This document shows, one piece after another, positions 2,474-57,100 of a DNA stretch of 64,000 nt. The stretch comes from an uncultured Acidobacteriota bacterium (GTDB lineage: Bacteria; Acidobacteriota; Thermoanaerobaculia; Multivoradales; UBA5704): the NCBI GenBank assembly GCA_963770895.1, contig CAVYRF010000001.1, forward strand, positions 1,472,001-1,536,000, read 5' to 3'. Both the position numbers and the translations under genes were made by a program. Below the pieces are notes generated by a model. It had not been told where the DNA came from, did not search any database, and worked only from the letters and a program-made list of their open reading frames with translations. Position 1 is the first letter of the stretch. Each line of letters begins with the position of its first letter.

Positions 2474-2484
2474 GGCGGACGTCG

Positions 2485-2868
2485 TTGCTCACCAACGAAC
2501 AGGTGCTGTCCAAGGCGGACGTTCTCGCCCGGCAGGTCGTCGAGGGGGATGTCCAGGACAACCAGCTGGCATTCGTCGTTGCCCATCTGAAGCGGCACCG
2601 CGACGTGGCCGCGACGCTCGAACTGCTGAAGAACCTGGAAGTCAGCCCGTTCGCCAGACGCACCCACCAGACGCCTGGTCAGTTCGCCGGCCTGCGCCGG
2701 TGGGTGAGCGCCAGCCTGAGCACGATCGCCGATTGGCAGGATGCCGCCGCCATCGTCGGTTGGGCGCGCCGGCTCGCGGCCTACTACCGGCCCGCCGGCC
2801 AGGGGCGCCGGGGTGGGCGGGCGGGGCGCGGCGGGCCGGTCGGCGGCGGATATCGCGGGCAGCGGTGA
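2485..2868 (+). CDS. Putative Cas11/Csm2-like small subunit
   Basis: TTG start after GAGG; small helical protein ending IVGWARRLAAYY plus a Gly/Arg tail; lies in the operon after the RAMP gene. Confidence 0.55.
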   Translation: MLTNEQVLSKADVLARQVVEGDVQDNQLAFVVAHLKRHRDVAATLELLKNLEVSPFARRTHQTPGQFAGLRRWVSASLSTIADWQDAAAIVGWARRLAAYYRPAGQGRRGGRAGRGGPVGGGYRGQR

Positions 2869-2946
2869 GGGGGCCGGGCGGACCTGAGGCTTACGGTGGG
2901 ATTGTGGCATGTTGGGCGTACCCTTGAGCTCGGACGCTTTGCGACC

Positions 2947-36933: not shown

Positions 36934-39636
36934 TCAAGCCGCCGGCGTGGCGCCGGCCGCGGCTTCGGCGCCCGCCGGTGGTTGTTGGGCGCGCAGCGCA
37001 TCGACGCGTGCCGCGATGGCGGCCACCGTCGGCCGGGCGAAGAACTCGACCGCTGGGAAGCGAAGGTCGAACATCGCGCCGATGTTGGCGATCATCTGGG
37101 TCGCCATCAGCGAATGGCCGCCGAGGCGGAAGAAGTTGTCGTTGCGGCCCACTTCCTCGATTTTCAGGACCTCGGCGAACAGTCGGGCCACGGTGGCTTC
37201 GGTGGCGCTGAGCGGCGCCGCGGCCGCCGTGCCGGAGCCGCCGCCGCGCGCCGCCGCGGCTGGCGGGGCCGGCAGCGCGCCGCGGTCGATCTTGCCGTTC
37301 GGGTTGAGCGGCATTTCGTTCAGCCGCATGAACAGGTTGGGCACCATGTAGGGGGGCAGTTTCTGCTCCAGCAGTGCGCGCAGACGGTCTTCGAAGGTGT
37401 GCCGGTCTCCGGCTGCCGCCGTGGCTCCCTCCGGCGCGGTTGCCGCCGGGACGTAATAGGCGGTCAGCCGCATCTCGCCCGGCGCGGTCTCCGCCGCCAC
37501 CGCCACCGCCTCCTTCACGCCGGGGTCGGCGCGCAGAAGGGTTTCGATCTCGCCCAGTTCGATGCGCTGGCCGCGGATCTTCACCTGATGGTCGATGCGG
37601 CCGAGGAATTCCAGGTTGCCGTCCGGCAGGTAGCGAGCAAGGTCGCCGGTACGATACAGGCGTGCTCCCGGAGTGGCGGCAAAGGGGTCATCGACGAACT
37701 TTCGGGCAGTGAGGGCAGCGTCGTTGGCATAGCCCTGGCCGACGCCGTCGCCGGCCAGACAGATCTCGCCAGCGACGCCGATCGGCACCAGGTGCAGCCG
37801 CTCGTCCAGCACGTAGACCTTGCTGTTGTGAATCGGCCTGCCGATCGGCACCGAGGTACGGCTGTAGCGATCGAAGTCGATCAGCCGGTAGGCCGACGAC
37901 ACGTCGCTGCATTCGGCGGCGCCGTAGACGTTGACGATCTCGGCCGCGCGGCCTGGCGACGCCACCCAGCCCAGCAGGCGCGAGGCCGAGATCGCCTCGC
38001 CGCCCAGGAACAGACAGCGCAGCGATCGCAGGCTGGCGTGGCTGCCCGCCTCGGGCCCTTCGAGCAGCGGGTAGAAGGTGCTGGGGGCGCAGTTGAGCAG
38101 CGTGATCTCGGAGTTGCGCAGGGTGCGCAGCAGCAGCTCGGGGTCATACCCGTCCGGCACCAGGTGCAGCTCGCCCCCACGCGTCAGGGGCATGGCCATG
38201 CTGCGCTGGGTGAGGTCGAAGCTGATCGAGCTCATCAAGAGGTTCTTGTCGGCGGCCGAGATGGCGAAGTCGTGGCCGAACCACGACAGAAGGTTGGTCC
38301 AGCCGCGATGGTGGACCGCCGCGGCCTTGGGGCGGCCGGTCGAACCGGAGGTAAAGATGATGTAGCACAGATCTCCGGGCCCGCTGCGCCGCTCGGGTAG
38401 GTCGCCGGGACGCGCCGCCAGCGCGGCGGCGTCGCGGTCCACCAGGACCACGCGCGGTTTCCGGGCCGGCAGGCGATCGAGCAGCCGTTCGCTGGTGACC
38501 AGCGCCTTCAGCCTGACGCCCTCGAACATCACCGCCATGCGGTCGCTGGGATAGCTGGGATCGAAGGGCACGTAGGCGCCTCCCGCCTTGAGCACGGCCA
38601 GCACGGCCACCACCAGCGCGGGCGAGCGATTGAGGCAGATCCCGACCGGCGTGTTGGCGCCGGCGCCCAGGCTTTGCAGGTGATGGGCGAGCTGATTGGC
38701 GCGCCGGTCCAGCTCGCCGTAGCTGATCCGCAGCGGACCGTCCACCAGCGCAATGCGGTCGGGCGCCGCCGCCGCCTGCGCCGCGAACAGCTGATCCACA
38801 CAGACATCGCGCGGGTAGTTGTGCGCCGTGTCGTTCCAGTCGAAGAGCAGGCGCCGGCGCTCGCCTTCGTCGAGCATGCCGAGGTCGGCGAGAGCGGCGT
38901 TGGGGTCGCGCAGGCCGGCGTCGAGCAGCTGTGCCAGGTGGCACAACAAGCGTTCGACGGTGGCGGCCGCGAAGAGCAGCGGGCTGAAGGCGGCCCTGCC
39001 GCGCAGCCCATCGGGCACGCGCTCGAAGGTGATGGTCAGGTCGTTGCCGGTCGCCGGCAGCTCGCCGTGCAGGCCGCCGTGCACCAGCGCCACATCGAAC
39101 AGCGGGCAGCGGTCTGCCCCCGGTGGCAGGCCCAGGTCGCTCAGCAGCTGGGCGAACGGCACCTGCCGGTGGTCGTGCGCTTCGAGGAGAGCCTGGCGTA
39201 CGCGCAGGAGGGTCTGGCGGAAGCTCGCCTGCTCGTCGATCTCGCTGACCAGGACCAGGACGCTGTCCGCCGTGTCGTCCGCCGGGTTGCCGGTAGTGCG
39301 CACCGCCGCACAGCCGATGGCGATGGGCGACGCCTGGGTGTAGCGGTGCAGGCAGACGGCGAGCGTTGCCGCCAGCGCCACATGCTCGAGGAATGGCTCG
39401 CCGCCGGTCAGCTGGGAGAGACGGTCGAACAGCTGACCGCCCAGGACGATCTCCACGGAGGCGTTGTGGTCGAGCCGCCCGGCGGGGCGGCGATGGTCGG
39501 CGGGAGGACCCGCCGGACGCGGTCGAACCGCCAGCTTGTCGCGCCAGTAGCGGCGGCTTGCGGCGGCCGGGTCCTCGTCCGCGGCAACCGGCGGGGCGGC
39601 GCCGGCGGCCGCGGCGGTTTCGCTCACAGTGCTCAT
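36934..39636 (-). CDS. Stand-alone NRPS: half condensation domain-A-T
   Basis: YIIFTSGSTGRPK, LYRTGDL, QVKIRGQRIELGEIE, LGGHSL; the N-terminal region starts at the YWR segment and has no HHxxxDG. Confidence 0.93.
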   Translation of the reverse strand: MSTVSETAAAAGAAPPVAADEDPAAASRRYWRDKLAVRPRPAGPPADHRRPAGRLDHNASVEIVLGGQLFDRLSQLTGGEPFLEHVALAATLAVCLHRYTQASPIAIGCAAVRTTGNPADDTADSVLVLVSEIDEQASFRQTLLRVRQALLEAHDHRQVPFAQLLSDLGLPPGADRCPLFDVALVHGGLHGELPATGNDLTITFERVPDGLRGRAAFSPLLFAAATVERLLCHLAQLLDAGLRDPNAALADLGMLDEGERRRLLFDWNDTAHNYPRDVCVDQLFAAQAAAAPDRIALVDGPLRISYGELDRRANQLAHHLQSLGAGANTPVGICLNRSPALVVAVLAVLKAGGAYVPFDPSYPSDRMAVMFEGVRLKALVTSERLLDRLPARKPRVVLVDRDAAALAARPGDLPERRSGPGDLCYIIFTSGSTGRPKAAAVHHRGWTNLLSWFGHDFAISAADKNLLMSSISFDLTQRSMAMPLTRGGELHLVPDGYDPELLLRTLRNSEITLLNCAPSTFYPLLEGPEAGSHASLRSLRCLFLGGEAISASRLLGWVASPGRAAEIVNVYGAAECSDVSSAYRLIDFDRYSRTSVPIGRPIHNSKVYVLDERLHLVPIGVAGEICLAGDGVGQGYANDAALTARKFVDDPFAATPGARLYRTGDLARYLPDGNLEFLGRIDHQVKIRGQRIELGEIETLLRADPGVKEAVAVAAETAPGEMRLTAYYVPAATAPEGATAAAGDRHTFEDRLRALLEQKLPPYMVPNLFMRLNEMPLNPNGKIDRGALPAPPAAAARGGGSGTAAAAPLSATEATVARLFAEVLKIEEVGRNDNFFRLGGHSLMATQMIANIGAMFDLRFPAVEFFARPTVAAIAARVDALRAQQPPAGAEAAAGATPAA

Positions 39637-39699
39637 TTCGCTCGCCCTCCAGGTCGCTCAGGTCGCTCAGGTCGCCGCGAAGCGCCGTGGTGTCCGCCC

Positions 39700-42168
39700 T
39701 CAAAAGTTGAACTGCAGGTTGGCAAGCGGCCGCCCGGTCGCGCTCTCGCGATCTGCCGTGGTGGCGATCGGCACGTCGCCCAGCAGGATGCCCGGCTCGC
39801 GCGCGGCCGCCGCCAGGACCGCCAGCAGCGCCTGGCCGAGCGCATCGCCGCCGTGGGGCGCCGCGTCGCCGCGCTCCAGGATGCGCAGCAGCAGGCCGCC
39901 GGCGCACTCCTGTACCCGCAGGATCAGCTCGACGTCCCGATAGGCCGGTACGGCGAAGCGCTCAGGCCCGTCCGCACCGCCCTCGCCATCCTGCAAAGTG
40001 AAGAGGCCCGGCGCCTCCGGCGGCGGCGGCGGGACCTCGACGTAACCGACCGCAAACACTGGACGCGCCTTCAGCGCGCCGGGGATCCGCAGGGTGGCGC
40101 CGAATAGGCTGGCGGCGAAGCGGCGGTGGGGCGCGGCGGCCTCCAGCCTGGCGCGCACCGCATGCGCCAGCTCGCGAAAGGCGGTGCGCTCGCTCGCCGC
40201 CAGGCGCACGGGGAACGGCTGCCCGCCGTCGCTCGCCACGATCACCGCCAGGTCGGTACGGCCGTCGAGCCGCAGCAGCGCGGCGGCGAGCGCGGCGAGC
40301 AGCAGGCTGCCCCGCTCGACACCGCAGCCGCGTGCCAGCGCATCCAGACGCGGCCGTGCCAGGTCGAGCGGCGAGCCCGAGCTCCAGGAGGCGTCCACTT
40401 CGTCCGGCCCGGCCGCCGCCATGGTGCCGCCGCGCCCTACCGAGAGCGGCGTGGCGAACTCGTCGCGCCAGTAGCGTTCGGCCTGGCGGAACGTCTCCGC
40501 GGACAGCGGCTGTCCCTGGTCGTGCGCCCCCGCCGCCCGGTCCCCCTCGGCCGCCGGGCGGTCGAACTGGCAGGAGCGGCGCAGCGCTTCGATGAGGAGC
40601 GGCGAGCCTTCGCCGCGCACCGGCTGCAGCACCTGTTCGCGCACCACCGCGTTCCAGCTGCCGAGGAAGGTATCGATCTGGTCGAACGACATGCCGCGGT
40701 TCTGCAGCAGGAACAGCGACACGAAGTTGAAGCCCGGATCGGGCACCCACTGTGGCCGATCGAAGCGGAAGAAGCAGCTTTCCACCAGATCGCAGGCGGT
40801 GCTCACGTCCATGGTGTCGTGCGACCAGGAGAAGTGATAGCCGCGGATGCCGTAGCGATCGCGCTCGTTCCAGATGGGCGTCACCGGGTCGCAGTACCAG
40901 ATCAGCGGGCGGTAGAAGTCGGGTCTGGTCTCCTCCAGGAAGTCGATGGTTTCCAGGGCGCTGGCGTAGGTTTCGCCGGGGAAGCCGAAGAAGAGGGACG
41001 CGAAGACCTTGATCCCCGCCGCCTTGAAAAGCGGAATGACCGAGAGGTAGTGCCGCTTGCGCGGCGTTTTGTGCATATTGACCAGCATCTGGTCGTTGGC
41101 CGATTCGAGGCCGAGGAACACCCCCTGGCAGCCGGCCTGCGCCATCAGCTGGACGAGCTCCTCGTCGCAGAAGTCGGCGCGGAAGAAGCAGTGCCAGCGA
41201 AAGCCGTAGCGCTGGCGGATCATCATGCGCATCATCTCTTTGAAGGTCTGCAGCGGCACGTTCGCCGTGTCGTCCACGAAGAACAGGCCGGTCACCGTGC
41301 CGACGTCGCGGATGGCGTTGAGCTCGCGCTCGATGTATTCGAGCTTCGAGACGTCGTACTTTTCGGTGCGCAGCGGAAACGAACAGAACGAGCAGGTGAA
41401 CGGACATCCTTTGGTGATGCGCACATTGACGTAGCTGCCCACCATGTCGGGCGGGAACAGCGAGTAGTCGATGAGGTTTTCGTACAGCGAGTTGAACTCG
41501 CGCTCGCTGGTGGTCAGCAGGAAGCGATCGCCCTGCCGATAGGCGATATTGGGGATGGCGGCGAAGTTGCGGTCTCCCTTGAGCGCCAGCAGGAGGCGCG
41601 CCAGCGCCTGCTCGCCCTCGCGGCTGCGCACGTAGAAGTCGGCGTCGATGTACCTGAACACCGCCTGCAGGTCGCTCTCCTCCATCGATTCGGAGCGCTT
41701 GGCGATGTAAGGTCCGCCCACCACGATGTGGGTGTCGGGGCTGTGCTCGCGCAAGAAGTTGACGACTTCCAGGATCGGTGCGTCGTAGTTGTAGATGGTG
41801 GTGGTGACCACCGCGGTCAGGTAGCGCCTGGTGCGCAGCTTTTCGCGCAGCTCGTCCTTTTGCAGTTGGAACAGGTTGATGTAGTCGAAGCTGAAGCCGC
41901 GCCGCGCCAGATAGGTCCCCAGGTACATCACCACCATCCACAGCACCTCGGTGTTGTGGAACTTGCGGCGAATGTCGAGCCCCGGCCGGCCCTCGAAGTG
42001 GAAGTGATCCAGGATGTCCATCGCCCGCCAGGGCCGGCCCTGGTACTGGATGTAGTTGAGGCTGAGGTCGCGATAGTCGGGATGGCCGGCGCCCATGGCG
42101 CGCATCATGTCGACTTCCTGCGCGAACTCGCTATCGTTGTAGCCGATGATGAGGCAGTCGGTGAGCAT
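39700..42168 (-). CDS. PhpK-family radical SAM (B12-type methyltransferase-like) fused to a half condensation domain
   Basis: TDCLIIGYND start, YLGTYLARRG, IVVGGPY, GCPFTCSFC, GVFLGLES, GFPGET; C-terminal YWRDEF..LLAAL..PFPVRL..FRELA. Confidence 0.85.
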   Translation of the reverse strand: MLTDCLIIGYNDSEFAQEVDMMRAMGAGHPDYRDLSLNYIQYQGRPWRAMDILDHFHFEGRPGLDIRRKFHNTEVLWMVVMYLGTYLARRGFSFDYINLFQLQKDELREKLRTRRYLTAVVTTTIYNYDAPILEVVNFLREHSPDTHIVVGGPYIAKRSESMEESDLQAVFRYIDADFYVRSREGEQALARLLLALKGDRNFAAIPNIAYRQGDRFLLTTSEREFNSLYENLIDYSLFPPDMVGSYVNVRITKGCPFTCSFCSFPLRTEKYDVSKLEYIERELNAIRDVGTVTGLFFVDDTANVPLQTFKEMMRMMIRQRYGFRWHCFFRADFCDEELVQLMAQAGCQGVFLGLESANDQMLVNMHKTPRKRHYLSVIPLFKAAGIKVFASLFFGFPGETYASALETIDFLEETRPDFYRPLIWYCDPVTPIWNERDRYGIRGYHFSWSHDTMDVSTACDLVESCFFRFDRPQWVPDPGFNFVSLFLLQNRGMSFDQIDTFLGSWNAVVREQVLQPVRGEGSPLLIEALRRSCQFDRPAAEGDRAAGAHDQGQPLSAETFRQAERYWRDEFATPLSVGRGGTMAAAGPDEVDASWSSGSPLDLARPRLDALARGCGVERGSLLLAALAAALLRLDGRTDLAVIVASDGGQPFPVRLAASERTAFRELAHAVRARLEAAAPHRRFAASLFGATLRIPGALKARPVFAVGYVEVPPPPPEAPGLFTLQDGEGGADGPERFAVPAYRDVELILRVQECAGGLLLRILERGDAAPHGGDALGQALLAVLAAAAREPGILLGDVPIATTADRESATGRPLANLQFNF

Positions 42169-42250: not shown

Positions 42251-43177
42251 TCAGACCTTGCGCGCCACGATCTGGAACGAGTCCGTCGGATTCACGCATT
42301 CGCCCGGCGTCGGCGTGCGATGGAATGTCGTTTTGCCGAAACCGTCGAACAGCCGCGCGATCTCCTCCTCGCCGCTCAGCATGTGTCGGGTGTGGACGCT
42401 GGCGAACTGGCGGAACAGCTCGAGCAGGCTGTCGCGGCCGCCGTCCGGGTGCTGCGGGAAGTGGTCGCCGTGCCCGGCCAGCAGCCGCTCGGCGCGCTCG
42501 GCATAGCCGCTGCGCAGCTCGGGGGTGGTGGCGCCGCCGATCATCGCGGTGGTGACCAGGGTGCCGCCCGGCTTGAGCAGCTCCCGCCAGCGCTTGACGA
42601 TCGTCGGCTTGTCCGCCGCCTTGATGACGGTCAGGAACTCGTCGGTGACGATGAGGTCGTAGGCGCCCAGCGGCAGGTCATCGGTGAGCAGGTTGGCGCG
42701 GGCACACTCGACCTGGAAGCCATGCCGGTCGGCATACCATTGGCAGGCGCGCAGCGGGGTGCGACAGATATCGTAGATCTCGATCCGTGGGGCGGCGTCC
42801 ACCTCGACCATCGCGGCGTACAGGGTGGCCAGCATGCCGTAGTCCGCCGCCGCCGAGATCAGCACCCGGCTGTGCGGGGCGCGGCGCAGCACCGCCGTGA
42901 GCGCCTCCTGGTAGAACTCGTACCAGGGTGGCGTCGCCACCATGTTGAGCAGGCGCAGGTACTGCCACGTGCCGTGATACCAGCTGCAGCTGATGTCCGG
43001 CAGGGCCTTGGCTTCCTGGTGTGTCTTGGCCCACTCTTCCATCCCGCCGGTCTCCTTGGCGCCGCAGTGCTGGGCTGCCCACGCCTCCATCAGCGGGGCC
43101 GATTCGATCAAGAGCTCGCGGTTGAACGGATCCAGCTCGTACAGGCGGATGGCAGGAGCGGTGGCTGTCGATGGCAT
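42251..43177 (-). CDS. Class I SAM-dependent methyltransferase-like protein
   Basis: GGAGG RBS; RVLISAAADYG, IYDIC, YDLIVTD, LKPGG motifs. Confidence 0.75.
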   Translation of the reverse strand: MPSTATAPAIRLYELDPFNRELLIESAPLMEAWAAQHCGAKETGGMEEWAKTHQEAKALPDISCSWYHGTWQYLRLLNMVATPPWYEFYQEALTAVLRRAPHSRVLISAAADYGMLATLYAAMVEVDAAPRIEIYDICRTPLRACQWYADRHGFQVECARANLLTDDLPLGAYDLIVTDEFLTVIKAADKPTIVKRWRELLKPGGTLVTTAMIGGATTPELRSGYAERAERLLAGHGDHFPQHPDGGRDSLLELFRQFASVHTRHMLSGEEEIARLFDGFGKTTFHRTPTPGECVNPTDSFQIVARKV

Positions 43178-43264
43178 TCGTCTGTCCTCCAAAGGGTTTC
43201 CATAGGGCAGCGGGCTATGGCGCCGGGGCTACGCTCTGCTCACGCCCCTCGCGCGATGCGAAAC

Positions 43265-43345
43265 GCCAGCGTCGCGACAAAATACACCAGATAATTGAAA
43301 ATTGGAATCTTCCAAAATTTTCAACCGGTACTACAATTAAACGCG
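43265..43345. promoter_or_regulatory. AT-rich divergent promoter region
   Basis: AT-rich island between divergently transcribed BGC genes; no precise -10/-35 assigned. Confidence 0.5.
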
Positions 43346-43437
43346 CCGAAAGGGACTGCCTCGGTCCGCGTTCCACGCTCTGCGTCGCGCGCTCGAGGAA
43401 CCGCCCGACGGACCGCCCACGACCCCGAGGAGACCGC

Positions 43438-44199
43438 ATGGCGACAGCGCTCAACCCCGACGCCTTCGTCCGCAAGCAGGACCGGCCCCGAGCCCGCCTG
43501 CGCCTGTTCTGTTTCACCTTCGCGGCATCGAGCGCACAGCTGTTCCACGGCTGGAACGACCACGTTCCCGAATGGATCGAGGTGAGCGGCTGCGAGCTGC
43601 CGGGGCACGGCGGCCGCCTGGCGGAGACACCGGTCTCCAACCAGCACGAAGCGGCGATCGAGATCGCCGATATGTTGGAGCCGGCTATCGATCGCCCCTA
43701 CGCTCTCTTCGGCCACTGCCTGGGCGCCGCCCAGGCATACGAGGCGACCCGCCTGCTGCGCCAGCGCGGCAAAGCGCAGCCGGTGCGCCTGTTCAGCTCC
43801 GGCGCGCGGGGACCCCATCTGGGTATCCCCATCGCCGACGTCGAAAGCATGGACGACGACGTATTCATCGAGCACATGCATCAGGCGTATGCGGCGCCGA
43901 TCGCCTTTTTGCGCCACCCCGAGATGCGGCCGCTCTTCCTGCCCATGGTGCGTGCCGACGCCCGCATGACACAGAACTACCGCTACGTGTCCGGCCCGCC
44001 GGTCGACTACCCGGTGACCGCGGTGGCGGGCGAGACCGACCCCGACGTGCAGATGGAGCACCTGGTCGCTTGGCGCGACCACACCACGGCGCCGGTGACG
44101 GCGCGCATCTACCCCGGGAACCATTTCTTCTTCATCGACAGCGCGCCGCAGCTGCTCGCCGATTTCGCTCGCGAGCTCGCGGCGAGCCTGCCCGGCTGA
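43438..44199 (+). CDS. Type II thioesterase-fold protein with a Cys nucleophile (GHCLG)
   Basis: RLFCF, ELPGHGGR, LFGHCLGA, PGNHFF; GAGGAG RBS. Confidence 0.9.
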   Translation: MATALNPDAFVRKQDRPRARLRLFCFTFAASSAQLFHGWNDHVPEWIEVSGCELPGHGGRLAETPVSNQHEAAIEIADMLEPAIDRPYALFGHCLGAAQAYEATRLLRQRGKAQPVRLFSSGARGPHLGIPIADVESMDDDVFIEHMHQAYAAPIAFLRHPEMRPLFLPMVRADARMTQNYRYVSGPPVDYPVTAVAGETDPDVQMEHLVAWRDHTTAPVTARIYPGNHFFFIDSAPQLLADFARELAASLPG

Positions 44200-44214
44200 C
44201 CGGAAACCTTGCCG

Positions 44215-44682
44215 ATGACGACCGGCCAGAGCCTGCAAGATCTCTACGCCCCCGCCGATCACTGCTTTGGCTGCGGGCCGGCCAACGAGCACGGCCTGCG
44301 CATCAAGAGCTATGTGGACGGCGACGAAGTGGTGGCCGAATGGACCCCCGATCGCCGTCATGAAGCGTTCGACGGCGTGGTCAACGGTGGCGTCATCGGT
44401 GCCCTGTTCGACTGCCACAGCAACTGGACGGCCGCCTGGCATCTGATGCTGCGCCACGGCGGCAGCGAGCCGCCCTGCACGGTCACCGCCGACTACCAGG
44501 TGCATCTGGTGTGGCCCACCTCGTCGCGCGGCCCGCTGCGGTTGCGCGCCTGGGTGGTGGAGTCGCAAGACGAGAGCGCCGTGGTCGAGGCCAGCCTGGA
44601 GGCGGCGGGCCGCACCACCGCCTACTGCCGTGGCACCTTTGTCGCCGTCCGGGAGGGCCATCCCGCCTTTCACCGGCGGTAG
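44215..44682 (+). CDS. PaaI-like hotdog-fold thioesterase
   Basis: CFGCGPANEHGL, GVVNGGVIGALFDCHSNW, TVTA, GTFVAV. Confidence 0.85.
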   Translation: MTTGQSLQDLYAPADHCFGCGPANEHGLRIKSYVDGDEVVAEWTPDRRHEAFDGVVNGGVIGALFDCHSNWTAAWHLMLRHGGSEPPCTVTADYQVHLVWPTSSRGPLRLRAWVVESQDESAVVEASLEAAGRTTAYCRGTFVAVREGHPAFHRR

Positions 44683-46427: not shown

Positions 46428-49400
46428 GTGACCGGGCGGCTCAAGGACCTGATCATTCTGCGCGGACGCAACTACTACCCGCAGGATATCGAGCGCACGG
46501 CCGCGCGGGTCCACCCGGCCCTGCGGCCGGACGGCGGAGCGGCCTTTTCGATCGAGCGCGAGGGCACAGCGCGCCTGGTGGTGGCGCAGGAGGTCGAGCA
46601 CGGCCGTGCGGATGTGCCGGATATGGCAGCTCTCGCCGAGGAGGTCCGGCGGATGGTTGCCGACGAGCTCGAGGTCGCGGTCGACGAGGTCGTGCTCCTG
46701 CGTAGCGGGACCCTCCCCAAGACCACCAGCGGCAAGGTCCGGCGCCAGGCTTGCCGGGAGGAGTACCTCGCGGGGAGGCTTTCCGTCGCCGGGCGCAGCG
46801 GGCTCGCCGCCGGCCGGGATCTGCCGGAAGACACCCCCACCAGCTTTGGCGATCTCGGGACGCTCGATCCGGCTGCCATCCGGGCGCTCGTCGCCGCGGA
46901 GGCCGCGCGCGTCCTCGGTCTCGACCCCGGAAGGCTGATGCCGGACCGTCCCCTCGCCGCGCTCGGACTGGACTCGCTGGCCGCTGTCGAGCTCAAGGCG
47001 GGACTGGAAGAGAAATCCGGTGTCTCCTTGTCGCTCACCCGGCTGCTCTCCGGGGCGAGCCTGGCGTCCGTCGCGGCGGAGGTGCTGGCGGGATCGGCGG
47101 TGCCGCGCCAGGTGCCGGAGTTGGAGATCGGGGCTCCTCTCGGCGACCATCCCCTCTCGGCAGGGCAGGAGGCTCTCTGGTTCTCCGACCGGCTGGCTCC
47201 GGAGGCCGCCGCTTACAATGTGGCGACGGCCGTCCACGTCGAGGGGGGGCTCGACCCGGAAGCCCTGGGGCGCTCCCTCCAGGCTCTGGCCGACCGCCAT
47301 CCGGCCCTGCGGACCACTTTCTTCTCTCAGCTCGGCGAGCCGCGCCAGATCGTTCACGAGCGCCTCGCCGTGGATTTCCGCGTCGAGCCATCGGGGTCGA
47401 AGGGGGCGGAGATCCCGCTCGTGGCCGAGGCCTACCGCCCATTCGATCTCGAAAACGAGTCTCTTCTACGGGTCCGGGTCTGGCCTCTGGAGGGTGGCGG
47501 CTGGCTTTTGCTCCTCGTCGTACACCATCTGGTGACCGATTTCTGGTCGCTCGGCCTCTTCGTCCGGGAGCTTGCAGCGCTCTATGGCGAGGCGACCGGC
47601 CAGGGACCGGCGCGGCTCGCACCCCTGCCGCTCGGCTACACCGACTACGTCCGCTGGCAGGGCAATCTTCTTGCCGGGGAGCAAGGTGAGCGGCTCTGGG
47701 AGCACTGGCGCCAACAGCTCTCGGGAGATCTTCCCGTGCTTGAGCTGGTGACGGACCGTCCCCGTCCCGCCGTCCAGACATATATCGGCCTCTCCCGCGG
47801 CCTGCGCCTCGCGCCCGAGCTTGCGGACCGGCTGCGGGCGCTCAGTCTGGCTTCGGGAACGACGCTCTTCGTCACTCTTCTGGCCGGGTTCCAGGCTCTC
47901 CTTGGCCGTTGCACCGGACAGGATGAGGTCGTGATCGGCTCCCCCACGGTGGGCCGGGGCGCCGCGCCCTTCCTGGGGGTGATGGGCTACTTCGTCAACC
48001 CGGTGGCGCTCCGCCTCTCCAGCGCCGGCGATCCTGCCTGGCGCGATCTCCTTTCGTTCGCCAAGGCGGTTTGTCTCGCCGCATTCGAGCACCGGGATCT
48101 CCCCTTTGCCACCTTGGCCGAGCGGCTCCATCCCGAGCGAGACCCCAGCCGTTCCCCGGTTTTCCAGACACTCTTCGCGCTCCAGAAGGCGCAGCGGCCG
48201 GAGGAGAGGGGCCTGGCGGAACTCGCCGCCGGAATAGAGAGGGCTCGGGCCACTCTGTCGGATCTCGAGCTCGTTGCCGTCCCCCTCGAGGAGTGCCGCT
48301 CTCCCTTCGACCTCACGTTGACGGCCGCCGATGCCGAGGCGGGCCTCCCGATCGTCCTGCAAGTCAACCGCGACCTCTTCGATCCCGCTACGGCGGAACG
48401 CCTTCTGCGTGCTCTCGAAAATCTGCTGTACGCCCTGGCTGAGGATCTCGATGCCCGAGTCTCCGCGGCCGAGATGCTCGGGGACGCGGAGCGCCGGCAA
48501 TGCGAGGCCTGGAGCCGCACCACGGTCGAGCTGCCGCGCGGCCTCTGCCTGCCGGACCTCTTCGCCGCGCAGGCGGAGCGCACTCCGGGGCGAGAGGCCC
48601 TCGTCGCCGGCAGTGAGCGTCTCACCTACCGAGAGCTGAGCCGTCGGGTGGAGATCCTGGCGCGGAGGCTTCGCGTCCTCGGCGTCGGACCGGAGAGCCG
48701 GGTCGGGGTTTCCGTCGGCCGATCCGCCGATCTCGTCGTCGCGCTTCTCGCGGTCTTGCGGGCAGGCGGCGCCTACGTGCCGCTCGACCCCGTTCAGCCC
48801 GCCGAGCGGCTCGCCTGGATGCTGCAGGACTCCGGGGCGGAGGTGTTGCTCGTCGAGGAGCGCCTCGCTCCAGGCCTGCTGGCAGCCGGGGTGCCCGCAC
48901 GCTGCCGAATCGTCTTGCTCGACCGCGGCGCGCACCGCAGCAGAGCCCAGCGGGGGATCCAGGGACGGCAAGATCCCATACTGCCCGGAAATCTCGCCTA
49001 CCTGATCTATACCTCGGGATCGACGGGACGGCCGAAGGGAGTGGCGATCGAGCACCGGAGCGCGGTGACGCTCGTACAGTGGGCGCGGCAGGTCTTCACG
49101 GACGCCGAGCTGTCCGGGGTCCTCGCCGCCACCTCGATCGGCTTCGACCTCTCGGTCTTCGAGCTCTTCGTACCTCTTTGCTGGGGTGGCCGGGTGATCC
49201 TGGCCGAGAATGCCCTGGCCCTCCCCGGACTGCCCGCGGCGGGCGAGGTGCGGCTGGTCAACACCGTGCCTTCGGTCCTCGCCGAGCTGGTCCGTGGGGA
49301 GGACGGGCTGGAGCTGCCGGGCTCGGTCACCACGATCAACCTGGCCGGAGAGCCCCTGCCGCGCTCCCTGGTGCGGGCCATCCACGAGAAACACCCGGCG

Positions 49401-52400
49401 GCGCGGGTGCTCAACCTCTACGGCCCTTCCGAGGACACCACCTACTCGACGTTCGCCGTGGTCTCGCCGGACGGAGAGCTGCCGCCGGCCATCGGCCGGC
49501 CGATCGCCAACACCCAGGCCCATGTGCTGGACCGCGGCAGACGCCAGGTGCCGGCCGGCGTGCCAGGCGAGCTCCATCTCGGCGGAGAGGGTCTGGCGCG
49601 CGGCTACCACGGGCGGCCGGATCTCACGGCGGAGCGGTTCGTGCCGGACCCGTTCGCGACGGGAGCGCGGCTCTACAGGACCGGGGACCTGGCCCGCTGG
49701 CGGCCGGACAGGGAGCTCGAGTTCCTCGGCCGCATCGATCATCAGGTGAAGATCCGCGGCGTCCGCATCGAGCCGGCGGAAGTGGAATCGGCGCTGCTCT
49801 CGCGGCCGGGAGTGCGCGAGGCGGTGGTCCTGCCGCAGGGGGAGGGTAGCGACCGGCGCCTCATCGCCTATGTCGTCGCCGAGACCGGTGCGGAGCTGGA
49901 CGAGGGCGCCCTCCGCGAGTCGCTCCTCGGGCTCCTGCCGCGGGCCATGGTGCCCGCGGCGATCGTGCCAGTTCCCGGGCTGCCGCTCACTCCGAACGGC
50001 AAGCTGGACCGCCGCGTCCTGGCGCGGCTCGCCCCGGAGCCATCGGCAGGTGGAGGAGGGGAGCCCGCGGCGCCGCGCTCGCCGGTGGAGGAGCTGCTCG
50101 CCGGCATCTGGACGGAGGTCCTCGGGGTCGAGCGGGTAGGGGCGGGAGACGACTTCTTCGCGCTCGGCGGGCATTCCCTTCTCGCTCCGCGCGTCCAGGC
50201 ACGGGTGCGCGAACGGCTCGGCGCCGAGCTGCCGCTCTCCGTGTTCTTTCAGCATCGCACGCTGGCGGAGCAGGCGCGGCGGCTCGCCGTCCGCAAGGTG
50301 GACGACCGCCCTCCACTTCGTCCGTCGCCGCGGGAGCGGACCGTTTTTCCTCTCTCCTTCGCTCAGGAACGCGTCTGGTTCCTCGAGCGGCTCGAGCCGG
50401 GCACAGCGGTCTATCACATGGCCGGCAGCACCCGCCTGACCGGCCCACTCGATCTCGCGGCGTTACGCCGCGCGCTTTGCGAGCTCGAGCGGCGGCACGA
50501 CGCCCTCCGCGCCCGGTTCCGGGAAGTAGACGAGATCCCGGTCCAGGAGATCGCCCCTGGGGGGCTGGACGGTCCGGAGTTGCCGGTCGTGTGCCTCGGG
50601 GGGTTGGAACCGGCGGCGCAGGAAGCCGAGGCGGAGCGTCTCACCAGAGACGAAGCCCAGCGCCCCTTCGATCTGGAGAACGGGCCGCCGTGGCGGCTCC
50701 TTCTCCTGCGCAAAGATTCCTGCCTTCACGAGCTCCTCATCACTCTGCACCACATCGCCGCCGATGAGGAATCGCTGGTGATCCTGGCGCGGGAGCTGGC
50801 CGCGCTCTATGCCGCCTTCCACAAAGGAAGGCCTCCCAGGTTGCCGGAGTTGCCGCTGCGCTCCGTTGACTTTGCCCTGTGGCAGAGGGAAGGGCTGGTT
50901 GGCGAGGTGCTGGAGAAGCGGCTCGCCTGGTGGCGGGAACGCCTGGCCGATCTCCCCATCATCGAGGTGGCGGCCGACCGTCCTCGTCCTGAGGCGCGGA
51001 GCTCCCGTGGGGATGTGGTCACCACCGTTTTGTCGCCGGCCCTCGCCGATGCCCTCGCTGCTCTGGGCCGCCGGGAGGGCGTCACGTTGTTCATGGTGCT
51101 CCTCGCCGGCTTCCAGGTCATCCTGGAGCGGATCTCTGGCGAGCCTGAGGTGCCGGTCGGCTGTCCGGTCTCCAACCGCGACCGCGAGCCGATCCTCCCG
51201 GTGATCGGTTTCCTGGTCAACACCCTGGTCCTCCGAGCGAGCAGCACAGCGGCCCCAAGCTTCGGCGGATTCCTGCGGCGGGTGCGGGAAGTCACCGTCG
51301 AGACCTTCGAGCATGGTGATGTCCCGTTCGAGCTGCTGGTCCAAGCACTCCAGCCGGAACGGGCTCTCGGCCGCAACCCACTCTTCGAGGTGGCTTTCGC
51401 GCTCCAGCGGCCACCCCATGGCTGGCAGGTCGACGATCTCGCCTTCGCGCCTCGGATCGTGCCGACCAGGACGGCCAAGTTCGCCCTCACCCTGTTCGCC
51501 ATCGCAGAGGAGGGGAAGCTCTCGCTTCTCCTCGAGTACGCGACGGACCTCTTCGACCGGCCGACCCCGGCGCGCCTGCTGGGTTACCTCGAAACGCTGC
51601 TCGCCGTGGCGGCCGCGGAGCCTGCGCGCCCTCTCGCCCTGCTCCCCTTGTTCGCTCCGGCGGAGCAGCAGGAGCTGATCCATCATCCGGAAGCACGGCT
51701 CTTTCGCAAGGTGGCGAGGGCGCGCGTCCCGGAGAGTCGCGGGGAGAATGGGCCGCGCGTCCTGGCCGCTCCGCGGACTCCCACCGAGGAGCGGCTGGTC
51801 GAGATCTGGGCCGGTGTGCTGGAACGCAGGCAGGTGTCGATCCACGACGACTTCTTCAGCCTCGGTGGCCATTCGCTCCTGGCCTCTCGGGTCGTGGCAC
51901 GGATTCGCAAATCCCTGGGCGTCGACCTGCCGCTCTCGATCCTCTTCACCTGTCCGACCATCGCGCGACTGGCCGGCGAGGTCGACCGCGCGCGCCGCGC
52001 TGCCGATGCGGGCGTGACGGAGGTAGAGCCGGTGGCGGCACCCCTCACCTTCCGCTGGGAGGACGGCTCCGCCCCACCGCTTTCCTTTGCTCAGGAGCAG
52101 CTCTGGTTCATTGACCAGCTGGAGCCGGGGAGCCCGGTTTACAACCTCTCCACCGCCGTATGCCTCGATGGGGCTCTCGACCGGAATGCCCTGCGCAGGG
52201 CTCTGGTCCAGGTCGTCGAGCGCCACTCGGTCCTCCGCACGACCTTGCGCGCCTTCGAGGGGCGACCGGTCCAGGTCGTGGCGCCGCATTTCCTCCCCGT
52301 CCTGCACGAGATCGATCTCCTGGATCTCGCTCCCGGAGTGCGGCAGGACGAGGCGGCGCGCCATGTGGCGGCCGGGGCGCTCGCCCCCTTCGACCTTGCC

Positions 52401-54107: not shown

Positions 54108-54122
54108 AGCAGGAGCTGATCC

Positions 54123-57100
54123 ATGGAGCAGGACATGAATGAGCCGAATGTCGAACAGATCGAACGGACGGACGTGGAGGGGATCGCCATCGTCGGCATC
54201 GCCGCGCGATTCCCGGGCGCACGCAACGCCGCCGAGCTGTGGCGCAACCTGCGTGACGGGATCGCATCGATCTCGTTCTTCAGCGAGGAGGAGCTGGCTG
54301 CGGCCGGAGTGGAGCCCGCGCTGCTGGCCGATCCACGCTACGTGCGGGCCAAGGGCTCCCTGGAGGACGCGGACCTCTTCGACGCAGCCCTCTTCGGCCT
54401 CACGCCGCGCGAGGCCGAGACCATGGATCCTCAGCACCGGATCTTCCTGGAGTGCGCCTGGGAGGCGCTGGAGGATGCGGCTTGCGATCCGGAGCGCTTC
54501 GGGGGCCGCATCGGCGTCTGGGCCGGCTCGGGCTTCAGCTCCTACCTGCTCTCGAACCTCCTGCCCAACCAAGAGAGGATGGAGGGCTTCGGCGCCCTCC
54601 AGGTGGCGCTCCTGAACGACCGCGACTTCCTCGCCACGAGGGCCTCGTACCAGCTGAATCTCAGGGGACCCAGCGTGTCGGTCCAGACCGCCTGCTCGAC
54701 CTCCCTGGTGGCAACTCACATGGCCTGCCAGGGCCTGATCGGGGGTGAGTGCGACATGGCGCTCGCCGGGGGCGTCTCGATCAGCGCGCCGCTGCGCACG
54801 GGCTACCTGTACCAGGAGGGGAGCGTGCTCTCGCCGGACGGCTGCTGCCGCGCCTTCGACGCCTCCGCGGCCGGCACTGTGGAGGGGAACGGCTGCGGAA
54901 TCATCGTCCTGAAGCGGCTTGACGACGCCCTGGCCGACGGCGACCGCATCTACGCGGTGATCCGCGGCTCGGCGGTGAACAACGACGGATCGGCCAAGAT
55001 CGGCTTCACCGCGCCCAGCGTGGAGGGGCAGGCCTCGGCCATTTCCGAGGCCCTGATCACGGCCGGGGTCGATCCCGCGACGATCGGCTACGTCGAGGCC
55101 CATGGCAGCGGCACGCCGCTCGGCGATCCCATTGAGATTGCGGCGCTCACCAAGGCTTTCCGCGCAGCGGGAGCCGAGGGCATGGGCTTCTGCGCCATCG
55201 GATCGATCAAGACCAACTTAGGCCATTGCAACACGGCGGCGGGCGTGGCCGGGCTCATCAAGGCCACCCTGGCGCTGGCGCACGAGACTCTGCCACCCAG
55301 CCTTCACTACGAGAGCCCCAACCCGCAGATCGACTTCGCCGGCAGCCCCTTCTATATCTGCACAGAGGCGCGGCCGTGGACCACCACTGGAGGGCCGAGG
55401 CGGGCCGGCGCGAGCGCGTTCGGCCTGGGCGGGACGAACGCCCATGCCGTGCTGGAGGAAGCGCCCGAGCAGGAGCCGGGCGATCTCCCCTCGCGGCCGG
55501 CACAGCTCCTGGTCCTTTCGGCCCGCACCCCGGCGGCGCTCGACGCGGCGGCGGCCCGGCTGGCGGACCACCTGGAGGCGAATCCGGACGTCGACATCGC
55601 CGACGTCGCGTGGACCCTTCAAGTCGGGCGCAAGGAGCTCGAGCACCGCCGGATCGCCGTGGCCCGCGACCGCGAGTCCGCCAGCTCCGCGCTCAAGGAC
55701 CGTGCCCCCGCCGCCGTCACCGGCAAGCAGGAGGGCGCATGGTCGAGGCCGGTGGTGTTCCTCTTCCCAGGGCTCGGCGACCAGTACGTGGACATGGCGC
55801 GGGAGCTTTACGAGACCGAGGCGCTCTTCCGCGGGCAGGTCGACCTTTGCGCCTCCAAGCTCCAGTCCTGGCTGGGCGCCGACCTGCGCGAGGTGCTCTT
55901 TTCGCCCGGGGAGTGGTCGCTGCCCGCCAAGGCAGCCCCGGACCTGCGCACCATGCTCCGCCGCAACGCGGAGACCTCGCGCCTCGACGAAACCCTGTTC
56001 GCGCAGCCGGCCTGCTTCGTGGTCGAGTACGCCCTGGGCCGTCTGTTGATGGACTGGGGGATCGTGCCGCGGGCCCTGATCGGCTACAGCCTCGGCGAGT
56101 ACGTGGCGGCGTGCCTGTCGGGAGCGCTCTCCCTGGACGATGCCCTGGAGCTGGTGGCGCGGCGGGCGAAGTTGATCCAGGCCCTCCCCGGGGGAGCCAT
56201 GCTTGCGGTGCCCTTGCCCGAGGAGGAGATCCGGCTCCTGCTGGGGGAGGGCCTGTCGCTCTCCGCTACCAACGGCCCGCATTTCTGTGTGGTGGGAGGG
56301 ACCGGCGAGGCGGTGGATACGCTGGACCGGCAACTGGCCGAGCGCGGTGTGAGCTGCCTCCGGCTGCGGACCACGCACGCGTTCCACTCCGCGCTGATGG
56401 AGCCGGCCGTGGCTCCCTTCACGAAGATTGCGTGCAAGGTGCGCATGCAGGCGCCGGCCATCCCCTTTGTCTCCAACGTCACCGGCACCTGGATCACCGC
56501 GGACGACCTCGCCGGCCCCGCCTACTGGGCGCGGCACCTGCGCCATCCCGTACGCTTCGCGGAGGGCATCGGCGAGCTGCTCCAGGAGCCCGAGCACGTT
56601 TTCCTGGAGGTCGGCCCGGGCGCGACCCTGGGTACGCTGGTCAAGCAGCACCCGGCTGCCGTGGCCAACCGGGTCACGGTGCCGACTCTGCGCGCAGGGG
56701 GCTCCGACCTGGAGACCCTGCTGGAGGCCGTGGGCCGGCTCTGGATCGCGGGGACCCACGTCGACTGGGCCCGCTTTCACGGCGGCGAGCGCCGCCTCAA
56801 GGCGCCGCTGCCGACCTATCCCTTCGAGCGCCAGCGCTACTGGATCGATCCGTCGAAGGACTCGGCGAAACCCGCGGCGGCCGCCGGTCCCGCGGCCGAC
56901 CTCGCGGACTGGTTCTGGGTCCCGGCCTGGAAGCAGGTGCCTCGCATGGCCGGCCTCCGGGAGACCCTCCGCTGGCTGGTCTTTCTGGATGAAGCAGGGC
57001 TGGGAGACAGAATCGCGGCGCGGCTGCGTAAGGACGGCCACGAGGTCGTTACCGCGAGGCCGGGCACCGCCTTCGAGGAGATCGGGGAGGGTGCGTTCAC

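Follow-up and report, generated by a model that had tools for sequence, protein, structure and literature searches.

A 64,000-nucleotide stretch of DNA from an uncultured Acidobacteriota bacterium (the window) encodes, side by side, a PhpK-family cobalamin radical SAM protein and a stand-alone nonribosomal peptide synthetase (NRPS) module, each of which carries only the C-lobe of a condensation (C) domain. On balance, and with some reserve, we read the pair as a cassette that would methylate a carrier-tethered starter amino acid, the enzyme being recruited when its C-terminal tail docks in a groove on the half-C of the module. That the two proteins act as a pair, the enzyme being recruited to the module, is very probable: the gene pair is conserved, a prediction of the complex passes its mark, and two natural fusions exist. 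How are cobalamin radical SAM enzymes guided to their substrates on NRPS lines? This is the question addressed here. Radical C-methylation at unactivated carbons is hard chemistry that in peptides is known mostly from ribosomal products, and we know of no product of this radical SAM family. If tail docking on a half-C is real, it offers a concrete, mutable handle consisting of an 8-residue peptide and a few groove residues, explains why some NRPS genes are repeatedly annotated as opening with a "truncated C domain", and suggests that radical methylation might be grafted onto other loading modules.

The radical SAM protein and its partner module

The two genes and their parts are as follows.

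39700..42168, (-) strand: radical SAM gene, comprising B12/radical SAM core, linker, C-lobe, and FxF tail (ORF translation and profile matches)
40645..42159, (-) strand: PhpK-family cobalamin radical SAM core (P0002 residues 24-528; TIGR04479)
39763..40509, (-) strand: condensation-domain C-lobe fused to the radical SAM protein (P0002 residues 574-822; AF2, Foldseek, VIA, hhalign)
39703..39726, (-) strand: C-terminal tail LANLQFNF, predicted docking peptide (conservation and complex model)
36934..39636, (-) strand: stand-alone NRPS module half-C (C-lobe)-A-T, 900 aa, P0001 (Pfam domains)
38845..39561, (-) strand: half condensation domain, C-lobe only (P0001 residues 26-264; Condensation profile 193-456, E 5e-17)
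39175..39414, (-) strand: predicted tail-binding groove on the half-C (P0001 residues 75-154, plus residue 245; interface list)
37291..38787, (-) strand: adenylation (A) domain, specificity code DLRNFGVDVK (motif-anchored), A5 motif NVYGAAE
37003..37194, (-) strand: thiolation (T, carrier) domain, GGHS at residue 839 (PP-binding, E 1.2e-14)

The radical SAM gene encodes 822 aa from an ATG at 42168 (protein database entry P0003); an alternative upstream start, a TTG at 42228, would give 842 aa, and it is to this longer form that P0002 residue numbers refer. The "PhpK-type" label of the initial annotation is borne out at the level of family membership, because P0002 scores 640.4 bits against TIGR04479 ("PhpK family radical SAM P-methyltransferase"), above the curated cutoff of 600, in an alignment covering profile positions 2-503 of 504 and residues 24-528. 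The Radical_SAM Pfam model matches as well (E 4.9e-21), the CxxxCxxC cluster motif reads CPFTCSFC at residue 275, and the cluster cysteines C255, C259, and C262 are invariant among 72 aligned sequences. For B12 binding, the PF02310 match (E 3.2e-5, 24.2 bits) lies under the gathering score of 32.1; a match to the same model is precomputed for several homologs. Even the solved structures nearest to the core by sequence, AprD4 (E 4e-15) and TokK (E 1.4e-4), are distant.

What is the C-terminal extension of about 310 residues (about 530-842 of P0002) that follows this core? Sequence-only tests are weak: the Pfam Condensation model against the extension alone is insignificant (E 0.21, profile 186-274), BLASTP of the radical SAM half against the NRPS half gives E 0.01 over 53 residues, and phmmer of the extension against the PDB finds no match at E up to 10. 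Its identity as a C-lobe is settled by fold and profile methods only. An AF2 model of the extension (pLDDT 84, from an alignment of 72 sequences) matches solved C domains with a Foldseek E of 1e-11 and a VIA Z of 19-21, model residues 45-293 superposing on chain residues about 190-457 with an rmsd of about 3 A over about 225 residues. The best fold matches include X-domain structures (4tx3_B, Z 19.2; 6m7l_B, Z 18.7). A PF00668 match is precomputed for many homologs, and the one at locus L009 matches Condensation at E 1.6e-9 (profile 194-451). Compared directly by hhalign, the radical SAM C-lobe and the NRPS half-C align in register across 248 columns (99.1% probability, E 6.4e-19), each from a YW(R)D motif onward.

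In P0001, the half-C is followed by AMP-binding, AMP-binding_C, and PP-binding domains (Pfam), and the stand-alone A-T portion retains an intact Ser for phosphopantetheine in its GGHS motif. The A-domain code matches no specificity code that we know, although the extraction method also yielded what we take to be familiar codes at other loci. As the stop-to-stop frame allows at most 7 further N-terminal residues, P0001 has no room for an N-lobe, and a custom N-lobe HMM found none in either ORF; a motif search of both proteins likewise found no HHxxxD. The earlier description from the bare sequence thus holds in its main lines: the radical SAM protein ends in a C-lobe, the adjacent NRPS begins with one, and neither has HHxxxDG. 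Each has the C-lobe only rather than the two-lobed PF00668 fold. The A-T protein has, at its N terminus, a C-type fold devoid of its catalytic lobe, which at about 240 residues is not a full-length, two-lobed recruitment domain of the X type or of the interface type named in the antiSMASH 8 text (PMC12230676).

A conserved tail and its predicted groove

The last residues of the enzyme stand out by their conservation, the phenylalanines F311 and F313 (F-x-F) being invariant in 72 of 72 aligned homologs. In the monomer model the tail is free, with pLDDT below 50 for residues 804-822 in a full protein of pTM 0.89. Where might it go? In the prediction of a complex between the two partners, the median ipSAE was 0.68, versus 0.29 for the best of three controls. 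This score is model confidence, and hence a prediction; of 80 solved complexes 58 attain its pass mark, as do 2 of 110 mismatched pairs, counts that apply only roughly here because custom alignments served as input. The runs agree on at least 87% of contacts, with partner pLDDT of at least 90, and show 47-60 contacts, 24 of them confident. The confident ones link C-extension residues 306-313 to P0001 residues 75-86, 112, 140-154, and 245, so that on the enzyme side they are confined to the last 8 residues. In this model, the FxF tail probably plugs into a hydrophobic groove on the half-C. The initial annotation had envisaged an interface pair of two half domains; a complex is indeed predicted, but its confident contacts run from tail to groove, not from lobe to lobe.

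The groove has its own sequence signature. Residues L83, L144, and L151 of P0001 are replaced by polar residues at the matching positions of the enzyme's C-lobe, where the position matching 83 is D/E in 46 of 72 sequences and that matching 144 is Q/R/K in 59 of 72. Of 28 half-Cs partnered by a radical SAM protein that ends in FxF or Fx[LY], 19 have L at position 144; the 77 full C domains have A, R, K, G, or Q there, and the 6 other half-Cs show various residues. Judged from these alignments, the groove is specific to partner half-Cs. One caution concerns the tail itself, which in a profile-profile comparison aligns with the canonical C-A linker motif LLxxWNxT. The complex pass could for this reason partly reflect the model's memory of linkers or COM-type tails lying on C domains.

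Gene pairing, fusions, and family forms

This radical SAM family is abundant in uncultured Acidobacteriota, with more than 100 protein clusters of relatives among the matches listed and 476 metagenome stretches that encode one. A relative in the cultured Pelosinus fermentans, P0089, is 568 aa long and ends in KFNF. In 401 sampled genomes of the phylum, no other radical SAM protein with a C-lobe turned up (4 of these genomes have core-only relatives, at 31-36% identity), and so the comparative work rests on metagenome contigs. The synteny set comprises 90 loci (11 genome and 79 metagenome), of which 66 are testable. Co-occurrence of the two half domains in homologs, on which the interface idea leaned, is found: the pair of radical SAM and half-C-A-T genes is conserved across related loci. 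Enzymes with an FxF tail have a half-C-first NRPS gene directly downstream of them in 22 of 25 loci, made up of 13 of 16 with a C-lobe and 9 of 9 without; the exceptions (L005, L009, and L039) have no NRPS gene immediately downstream. Where the enzyme has another tail (38 loci), the next gene is half-C-first in 5, full-C-first in 7, A-first in 5, no NRPS gene in 20, and a radical SAM gene in 1. One of the 5 half-C-first cases, L035, has FDF followed by 6 more residues.

Can these counts be taken as co-variation? On an enzyme tree (FastTree, midpoint root, branch supports not considered), the association of FxF with half-C is largely the trait of one clade, so that the counts are not independent events, and they were dropped as an argument of that kind. 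The case for co-variation rests instead on two instances of tail loss and on the fusions. At L034 and L043, which fall on different tree branches, the gene after a tail-less C-lobe enzyme is an A-T gene that lacks a half-C, and only these two cases look independent. As for the fusions, P0193 reads radical SAM-halfC-A-T-C in one chain, and P0192 is laid out similarly; both have a single lobe, and their cores share 60-64% identity with the clade of short FxF enzymes. The family takes four forms: all parts fused as radical SAM-halfC-A-T; two genes that part ahead of the lobe; two that part behind it; and, as in this window, two genes that each encode a lobe.

What, then, does the enzyme's own C-lobe contribute? 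It is not what defines the pairing, given that all 9 of the short, C-lobe-less FxF enzymes precede half-C-first genes. Nevertheless, it has some role of its own, as the lobe-bearing enzymes of L034 and L043 precede A-T genes that lack a half-C.

Alternative readings

Might the enzyme act off the carrier, on a free amino acid ahead of loading or on a released or growing peptide? The C-lobe would then bind substrate, the half-C would be a structural remnant that steadies the A domain, and adjacency would reflect co-regulation. In vitro, DscE accepts free discodermin D and B for methylation (PMC12858407), and P0097, a C-lobe-bearing homolog and conceivably DscE itself, comes from an Entotheonellaceae genome, but the fusions put the radical SAM protein in one chain with half-C-A-T. 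A mere remnant also sits poorly with the coincidence of tail loss and half-C loss, with a groove that appears specific to partner half-Cs, and with a complex prediction above the mark. Partner A-domain codes vary widely among loci and 3 of 25 FxF enzymes have no adjacent NRPS gene, both of which would suit off-carrier action; set against this, half-C-first genes are otherwise rare, accounting for 2 of 97 A-domain ORFs in this genome. We consider such action unlikely, though it deserves to be kept in mind.

A further alternative, which we regard as improbable, keeps the docking and moves its site. C domains are pseudo-dimers of two CAT-like lobes, and the C-lobes of the two partners are homologous and in the same register; they might pair as a pseudo-dimer that imitates a whole condensation domain, with the lobe-lobe interface docking the enzyme and the tail being secondary. 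The 47-60 contacts of the runs, only 24 of them confident, leave space for such an interface, but every confident contact of the enzyme lies within the tail. The genetics point the same way: the 9 short FxF enzymes pair with half-C-first genes while having no lobe to offer, L034 and L043 retain the enzyme lobe though the partner has none, and the fused forms make do with one.

The weakest alternative takes the enzyme for a true PhpK-type P-methyltransferase whose substrate is a phosphinate amino acid, as in the biosynthesis of phosphinothricin tripeptide. It would fit the TIGR04479 score and perhaps the unusual Arg at A-domain code position 239, which could suit an acidic side chain, but it is very improbable and was set aside. 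The only PEP-mutase-family (PF13714) matches in the genome, two in number, lie about 750 kb away (C1:723,777) or on another contig (C2), and neither the cluster nor its surroundings have a PEP mutase. The window and the 40 kb beyond it hold only genes of NRPS, PKS, transport, and thioesterase kinds, and partner A-domain codes at relatives' loci are ones that we take to resemble those for Asn, Asp, Tyr, and Pro.

The surrounding cluster and a proposed pathway

If the enzyme does act on a starter amino acid tethered to P0001, which other genes might serve the pathway? The neighbors of the pair are as follows.

42251..43192, (-) strand: SAM-dependent methyltransferase-like gene, first of a conserved operon MTase-radical SAM-halfC-A-T (weak Methyltransf_25/12)
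43171..44199, (+) strand: type II thioesterase homolog in which Cys replaces the nucleophile Ser, GHCLG (Pfam Thioesterase, E 6e-36)
44209..44682, (+) strand: hotdog (4HBT) thioesterase (Pfam)
46428..54107, (+) strand: NRPS1, with Asub-like fragment + T, C-A-T, C-T, and C-(Asub only)-T (domain search)
54120..58784, (+) strand: PKS module KS-AT-KR-T (domain search)
58705..64000, (+) strand: NRPS2, four C-A-T modules + TE (extends past the window, ending at window-equivalent 73788)

The methyltransferase-like gene (E 2.7e-6 against PDB SAM methyltransferases) is kept upstream of the radical SAM gene in L001, L002, L003, L005, L006, and L007. The type II thioesterase homolog, whose true start is probably the Met near 43438, matches RifR at E 1.5e-40, and its GHCLG motif is conserved in L003, L005, L006, and L007. 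A Cys nucleophile can mark an aminoacyl transferase, and by this motif the protein is a candidate aminoacyl shuttle. In NRPS1, two modules (C-T and C-(Asub only)-T) lack a working A domain, as expected of an A-less acceptor. A second PhpK-family radical SAM protein, without C-lobe or FxF tail, is encoded after NRPS2 and complicates the assignment of roles in the cluster.

In the proposed pathway, the half-C-A-T protein would adenylate an amino acid and load it onto its own T domain. The PhpK-family enzyme would be recruited as its disordered but conserved tail, LxxLxFNF, entered the hydrophobic groove of the N-terminal half-C, a contact that is predicted by the complex model. Once docked, it would methylate an unactivated carbon of the aminoacyl-S-pantetheine by means of SAM and methylcobalamin. 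The product would be handed to NRPS1, whose modules include ones without a working A domain, and the Cys-nucleophile thioesterase-like neighbor may make that transfer. The enzyme's own C-lobe, packed rigidly on the core, may serve as an adaptor for the carrier or the pantetheine arm.

A broader and more tentative reading, possible but doubtful in our view, treats [B12 radical SAM]-[C-lobe]-[A]-[T] as a portable assembly in which the radical SAM core replaces the catalytic N-lobe and the FxF peptide and groove rejoin the pieces. A T domain at the residual acceptor site would feed aminoacyl-pantetheine to the radical active site, and the assembly could be encoded in any of the four forms described above. 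Such a device, if it exists, would make the methylation of unactivated carbons general and transferable across many NRPS starter residues.

Comparison with known systems

Searches of the literature (main texts) found no prior description of a radical SAM methylase docked through a half-C, and the parallels to the tethered-starter cassette are partial. Like the X domain of glycopeptide synthetases, the half-C would be a catalytically dead C-fold that acts as a landing pad on an NRPS for a trans tailoring enzyme (Oxy cytochrome P450s in the glycopeptide case), and the client is proposed to act on a carrier-bound substrate. The X domain, however, is full-size, has both lobes, and belongs to the last module, whereas here only a C-lobe is present, at the N terminus of a first or stand-alone module. 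The client also differs, being a B12 radical SAM protein that itself carries a C-lobe and whose predicted contact is a short C-terminal tail.

The siderophore interface domain, which accompanies beta-hydroxylases, is another C-type domain without condensation chemistry that is paired with a tailoring enzyme for a tethered amino acid. Reitz et al. are said to have described it in 2019 as a single full-size C-like domain inside the NRPS, partnered reportedly by a non-heme iron hydroxylase, with neither paired halves nor a tail motif. On that account, the paired partial C domains that the initial annotation had given as precedent fall away. COM docking pairs join two synthetase subunits for chain transfer, and the predicted contact resembles these short-tail systems in placing a short C-terminal peptide on the N-terminal C-type region of the protein encoded downstream. 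Unlike a COM tail, the tail here is that of a tailoring enzyme, with a truncated C-lobe as its predicted acceptor and FxF at the very C terminus as its motif.

In the SyrB1/SyrB2/SyrC and CmaA/CmaB/CmaE systems, a stand-alone A-T protein loads the amino acid, which a trans enzyme then alters on the carrier before a transferase moves it to a module without an A domain. In the cystobactamid pathway as outlined in PMC7966384, CysB transfers a residue between T domains, from a stand-alone one to one of the assembly line. The present cluster resembles these cassettes and CysH/CysB in combining an A-T protein, an adjoining tailoring enzyme, a Cys alpha/beta-hydrolase, and A-less C-T modules. It differs from the SyrB, Cma, and CysH cassettes in that the tailoring enzyme would be a cobalamin radical SAM methylase where theirs are halogenases or hydroxylases, and in its apparent dedicated docking device.

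Among radical SAM enzymes, CysS, ThnK, and TokK appear in PMC8950095 as B12-dependent methylases of pantetheinyl substrates, and DscE, from an NRPS cluster, methylates its peptide in vitro after release (PMC12858407). The portions of those sources that concern these enzymes describe neither a docking domain nor a C-lobe (PMC8950095, PMC12858407), and DscE, unlike the enzyme in the on-carrier action proposed here, acts on free peptide (PMC12858407). In common with all four, the present protein would be a class B radical SAM C-methylase of an NRPS or related pathway.

A C-lobe on each of two adjacent proteins

36934-39636, (-): NRPS gene, 900 residues (protein P0001); half-C (C-lobe only of a condensation, or C, domain), AMP-binding, AMP-binding_C, PP-binding
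39700-42168, (-): radical SAM (rSAM) gene (protein P0002, numbered from a TTG upstream), adjacent to the NRPS gene

Residues 24-528 of P0002 score 640.4 bits with the NCBIfam model TIGR04479, "PhpK family radical SAM P-methyltransferase," whose cut-off is 600, confirming the PhpK-type membership proposed in the initial annotation. The protein has a Radical_SAM Pfam match, the cluster motif CPFTCSFC, and a sub-threshold B12-binding match. About 310 residues lie beyond this core. What are they? On sequence alone, the case for a half condensation domain is weak: the extension matches Pfam Condensation at E 0.21 and the NRPS half-C at E 0.01 (BLASTP), and phmmer found no match in the PDB. The structural comparison is stronger. 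The alignment of the extension comprised the query and 71 of the 120 homologues listed (72 rows), and the AF2 model (pLDDT 84.4, pTM 0.84) matched C domains in Foldseek at E ~1e-11. VIA-align placed model residues 45-293 onto residues ~190-457 of solved C domains (Z 19-21, rmsd ~3 Å over ~225 residues), the stretch that makes up the C-terminal lobe. Far from being unlike a C domain, the extension thus has the fold of a C-lobe.

In a profile-profile comparison, the extension and NRPS half-C families align at 99.1% probability (E 6.4e-19, 248 columns) in identical register, both starting at a YW(R)D motif just past the lobe boundary. Residues 26-264 of P0001 match positions 193-456 only of the Condensation profile and are followed by AMP-binding, AMP-binding_C, and PP-binding; the open frame could add at most 7 N-terminal residues, so there is no space for an N-lobe. 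A C-lobe at the end of the rSAM protein and another at the start of the NRPS had both been noticed before, as had the missing active-site motif, and both points are confirmed, with no HHxxxD found in P0001 or P0002 by a motif scan.

The specificity code of the P0001 A domain, by motif-anchored extraction, is DLRNFGVDVK (DIRNFGVDVK in the closest loci), which to our knowledge matches no known code. The codes at other loci are ones we take to be Asn, Asp, Ser, and Tyr types, which makes the extraction credible and indicates that partners of this rSAM family load different residues. The source genome (8.16 Mb, 3 contigs) is unusually NRPS rich, with 97 ORFs (stop to stop, ≥250 aa) that carry an A domain, many holding 5 to 10 modules. 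Only 2 of the 97 open with a C-lobe without a preceding N-lobe, one being the P0001 gene. The other (C1:2157626-2170654, +) follows an NRPS gene whose last domain is a complete C domain; no PhpK-like rSAM was seen in its vicinity.

A predicted tail-groove contact

Do the two proteins associate, and if so, through which parts? Prediction of a complex between the rSAM extension (72-row alignment; numbered 1-313) and the NRPS half-C (39-row alignment) scored 0.68 (runs of 0.70, 0.67, and 0.68); the highest of three controls was 0.29. Of solved complexes, 58 of 80 reach the score mark used, as do 2 of 110 mismatched pairs; because our own alignments served as input, these counts are approximate. 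The runs had at least 87% of contacts in common, with partner pLDDT of at least 90. The confident contacts join extension residues 306-313 (LANLQFNF), the extreme end of the protein, to P0001 residues 75-86, 112, 140-154, and 245, which form a groove between two helices; none joins lobe with lobe. An interaction is therefore predicted, as expected from the annotation, but between tail and groove and not between the half domains.

Both tail phenylalanines are invariant in the 72 aligned sequences (72/72), and nearly all of the 110 homologues listed, each of at least 770 aa, end in F-x-F. In a model of the whole enzyme alone (pLDDT 87.8, pTM 0.89), the last 19 residues fall below pLDDT 50, which fits a tail awaiting its partner, while the high pTM suggests that core and C-lobe are fixed to one another. 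On the other side, groove positions 83/144/151 are L/S, L, and L in the 28 half-Cs that accompany an FxF- or Fx[LY]-tailed rSAM (position 144 is L in 19); position 144 varies in 6 other half-Cs. Ordinary full C domains (77) mostly have T at position 83 (70/77) and carry A, R, K, G, or Q at position 144. The equivalents in the rSAM's own lobe are D/E (46/72), Q/R/K (59/72), and mixed polar residues, so that lobe is without the groove into which the tail is predicted to fit. The tail also aligns, profile to profile, with the canonical C-A linker motif LLxxWNxT, so that the model's confidence may partly reflect remembered linker or COM-type packing.

Tails, half-Cs, and fusions across loci

Loci from species genomes (11) and metagenome contigs (79) were classified with in-house HMMs for the rSAM core, extension, partner half-C, N-lobe, generic C-lobe, and A domain. 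Sixty-six were counted; 24 were excluded because the gene was open at a contig end or followed by <900 nt.

Gene next downstream of the rSAM gene, by tail
F-x-F within last six residues, 25 loci: 22 half-C-first NRPS gene, 3 nothing recognisable (L005, L009, L039)
F-x-[L/Y], 3 loci: 2 half-C-first, 1 none
Other tails, 38 loci: 5 half-C-first, 7 full-C-first, 5 A-first, 20 none, 1 another rSAM

A half-C-first gene follows 13 of the 16 FxF enzymes with a C-lobe and all 9 of the short ones without it (9/9). One of the five half-C-first loci with other tails, L035, ends in FDF plus six residues. The half-C-first gene often encodes a multi-module synthetase and not a lone A-T protein (e.g., L031, L048, L052, and L073), so the half-C marks an initiation module. 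In a FastTree core tree, midpoint rooted and read by topology alone, all FxF enzymes fall in one clade, with a short-form and a C-lobe subclade, so the counts do not represent independent events. Two members of the C-lobe subclade, L034 and L043, have however lost the tail on separate branches, and at both loci the rSAM is directly followed by an A-T gene that lacks a half-C.

A search of longer proteins (2785 candidates, E ≤1e-30) found two fusions, whose cores share 60-64% identity with the short FxF forms: P0193, a single rSAM-halfC-A-T-C chain, and P0192, of like layout plus further rSAM domains. The four pieces involved are thus arranged in four ways: as a single chain; divided before the lobe (tailed rSAM + half-C); divided after it (rSAM-lobe + A-T); and, as seen in the window, with a lobe on both partners.

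Several other observations were made along the way. At L059 (1567-7362, +), a half-C-A-T-C initiation module directly downstream of an FxF-tailed PhpK-like rSAM has its A domain interrupted after profile position ~130 by a Radical_SAM and then a B12-binding domain; P0192 has this layout in one 3009-aa chain with an additional N-terminal rSAM. No description of an rSAM-interrupted A domain was found in the literature searched. P0089, from the cultured Firmicute Pelosinus fermentans, is a short PhpK-family protein (568 aa) that shares 54-56% identity with the window's group and lacks the C-lobe, yet ends in KFNF. L024 (G365:C3:679007-680482) has a PhpK-like core, 36% identical, in a 980-aa open frame.

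Genomic surroundings

932-4242, (+): type III CRISPR genes, RAMP-family protein and Csm6 with HEPN domain, left of the island
12130-37211: mobile-element island of lower G+C, left of the gene pair; integrases, IS21, Mu-type transposase, serine recombinase, DUF3631
Right of the rSAM gene, same operon: methyltransferase-like gene
43171-44199, (+): type II thioesterase homologue, GHCLG replacing GxSxG; divergent pair with a hotdog thioesterase
46428-54107, (+): NRPS1, Asub-like fragment + T / C-A-T / C-T / C-(Asub only)-T
Right of the gene pair: MFS pump; PKS module KS-AT-KR-T
Extending beyond the window: NRPS2, four C-A-T modules + TE
L020:9797-11431 (= G000:C1:1545797-1547431), ~10 kb past the right end: second PhpK-family rSAM, TIGR04479 642 bits

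The window is high in G+C (61-74% in 2-kb windows) and is closely related to MAGs from class Thermoanaerobaculia (Acidobacteriota). The island holds two tyrosine integrases, an rve integrase, a large serine recombinase, a Mu-transposase C-terminal domain, IS21 IstB, and DUF3631. It adjoins the 3' end of the half-C-A-T gene, which the DUF3631 frame overlaps on the opposite strand.

A hybrid NRPS/PKS cluster lies to the right. The GHCLG protein, whose best PDB match is RifR, keeps this motif in L003, L005, L006, and L007, always beside a hotdog thioesterase. L001 and L005, on separate contigs of one MAG, carry a near-duplicate MTase-rSAM(C-lobe) pair; in the L005 copy, a frame break interrupts the rSAM core, the GHCLG and hotdog genes are retained, and no half-C-A-T follows. 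In NRPS1, only the C-terminal A subdomain remains at the N terminus and in the last module, the C-T module has no A domain, and HHxxxD lacks the final G in two of the three C domains. The second rSAM, directly after the NRPS2 terminal TE, is 38% identical to the first, ends in GWRPAA, and has neither C-lobe nor FxF tail; in its clade (L058-L072), the NRPS genes that follow the rSAM start with a full C or half-C. Elsewhere in the genome, several other B12/radical SAM genes (C1:744298-757217) lie 20-35 kb from the best PEP-mutase-family hit (C1:723777-724493).

What does the enzyme act on?

A serious rival to action on a tethered residue is that the rSAM modifies a free amino acid or released peptide, as DscE from "Entotheonella" methylates free discodermins (PMC12858407); an Entotheonellaceae homologue, P0097, has a C-lobe. 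The fusions and the losses of tail and half-C argue against this for the rSAM family. The short forms, the loci L034 and L043, and the fusions all make docking through a lobe-lobe pseudo-dimer, the initial annotation's version, less likely; of that proposal, association stands, as a predicted tail-groove contact. P-methylation is unlikely and was set aside because no PEP-mutase-family gene was found near the NRPS/PKS cluster.

In the mechanism we propose, the half-C-A-T protein would load an amino acid onto its own T domain, the tail in the half-C groove would hold the rSAM on the module, and the rSAM would methylate the tethered residue at carbon. The product would then enter NRPS1, some of whose modules are unable to self-load. 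How might it get there? The GHCLG thioesterase-like protein may transfer it; its Cys nucleophile would point to transfer rather than hydrolysis, as in SyrC and CmaE. Since the rSAM's own C-lobe is retained where the partner lacks a half-C, it is a candidate for holding the carrier or pantetheine arm. The proposed route has precedents: CysB takes the tailored residue off the T domain of stand-alone CysH and delivers it to CysK (PMC7966384), and CysS, ThnK, and TokK accept pantetheinyl substrates (PMC8950095).

In the paper texts searched, no description was found of a half-size C-lobe serving as landing pad, of a terminal FxF peptide acting as plug, or of a recruited client that is a cobalamin radical SAM enzyme or itself carries a C-lobe. 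Catalytically dead C-type domains do recruit tailoring enzymes, the X domain P450s and interface domains hydroxylases, and X-domain structures are among the fold matches of the rSAM's C-lobe. In the fused forms, the rSAM stands at the N-lobe position in the chain, which suggests that it may replace the catalytic half of a C domain.
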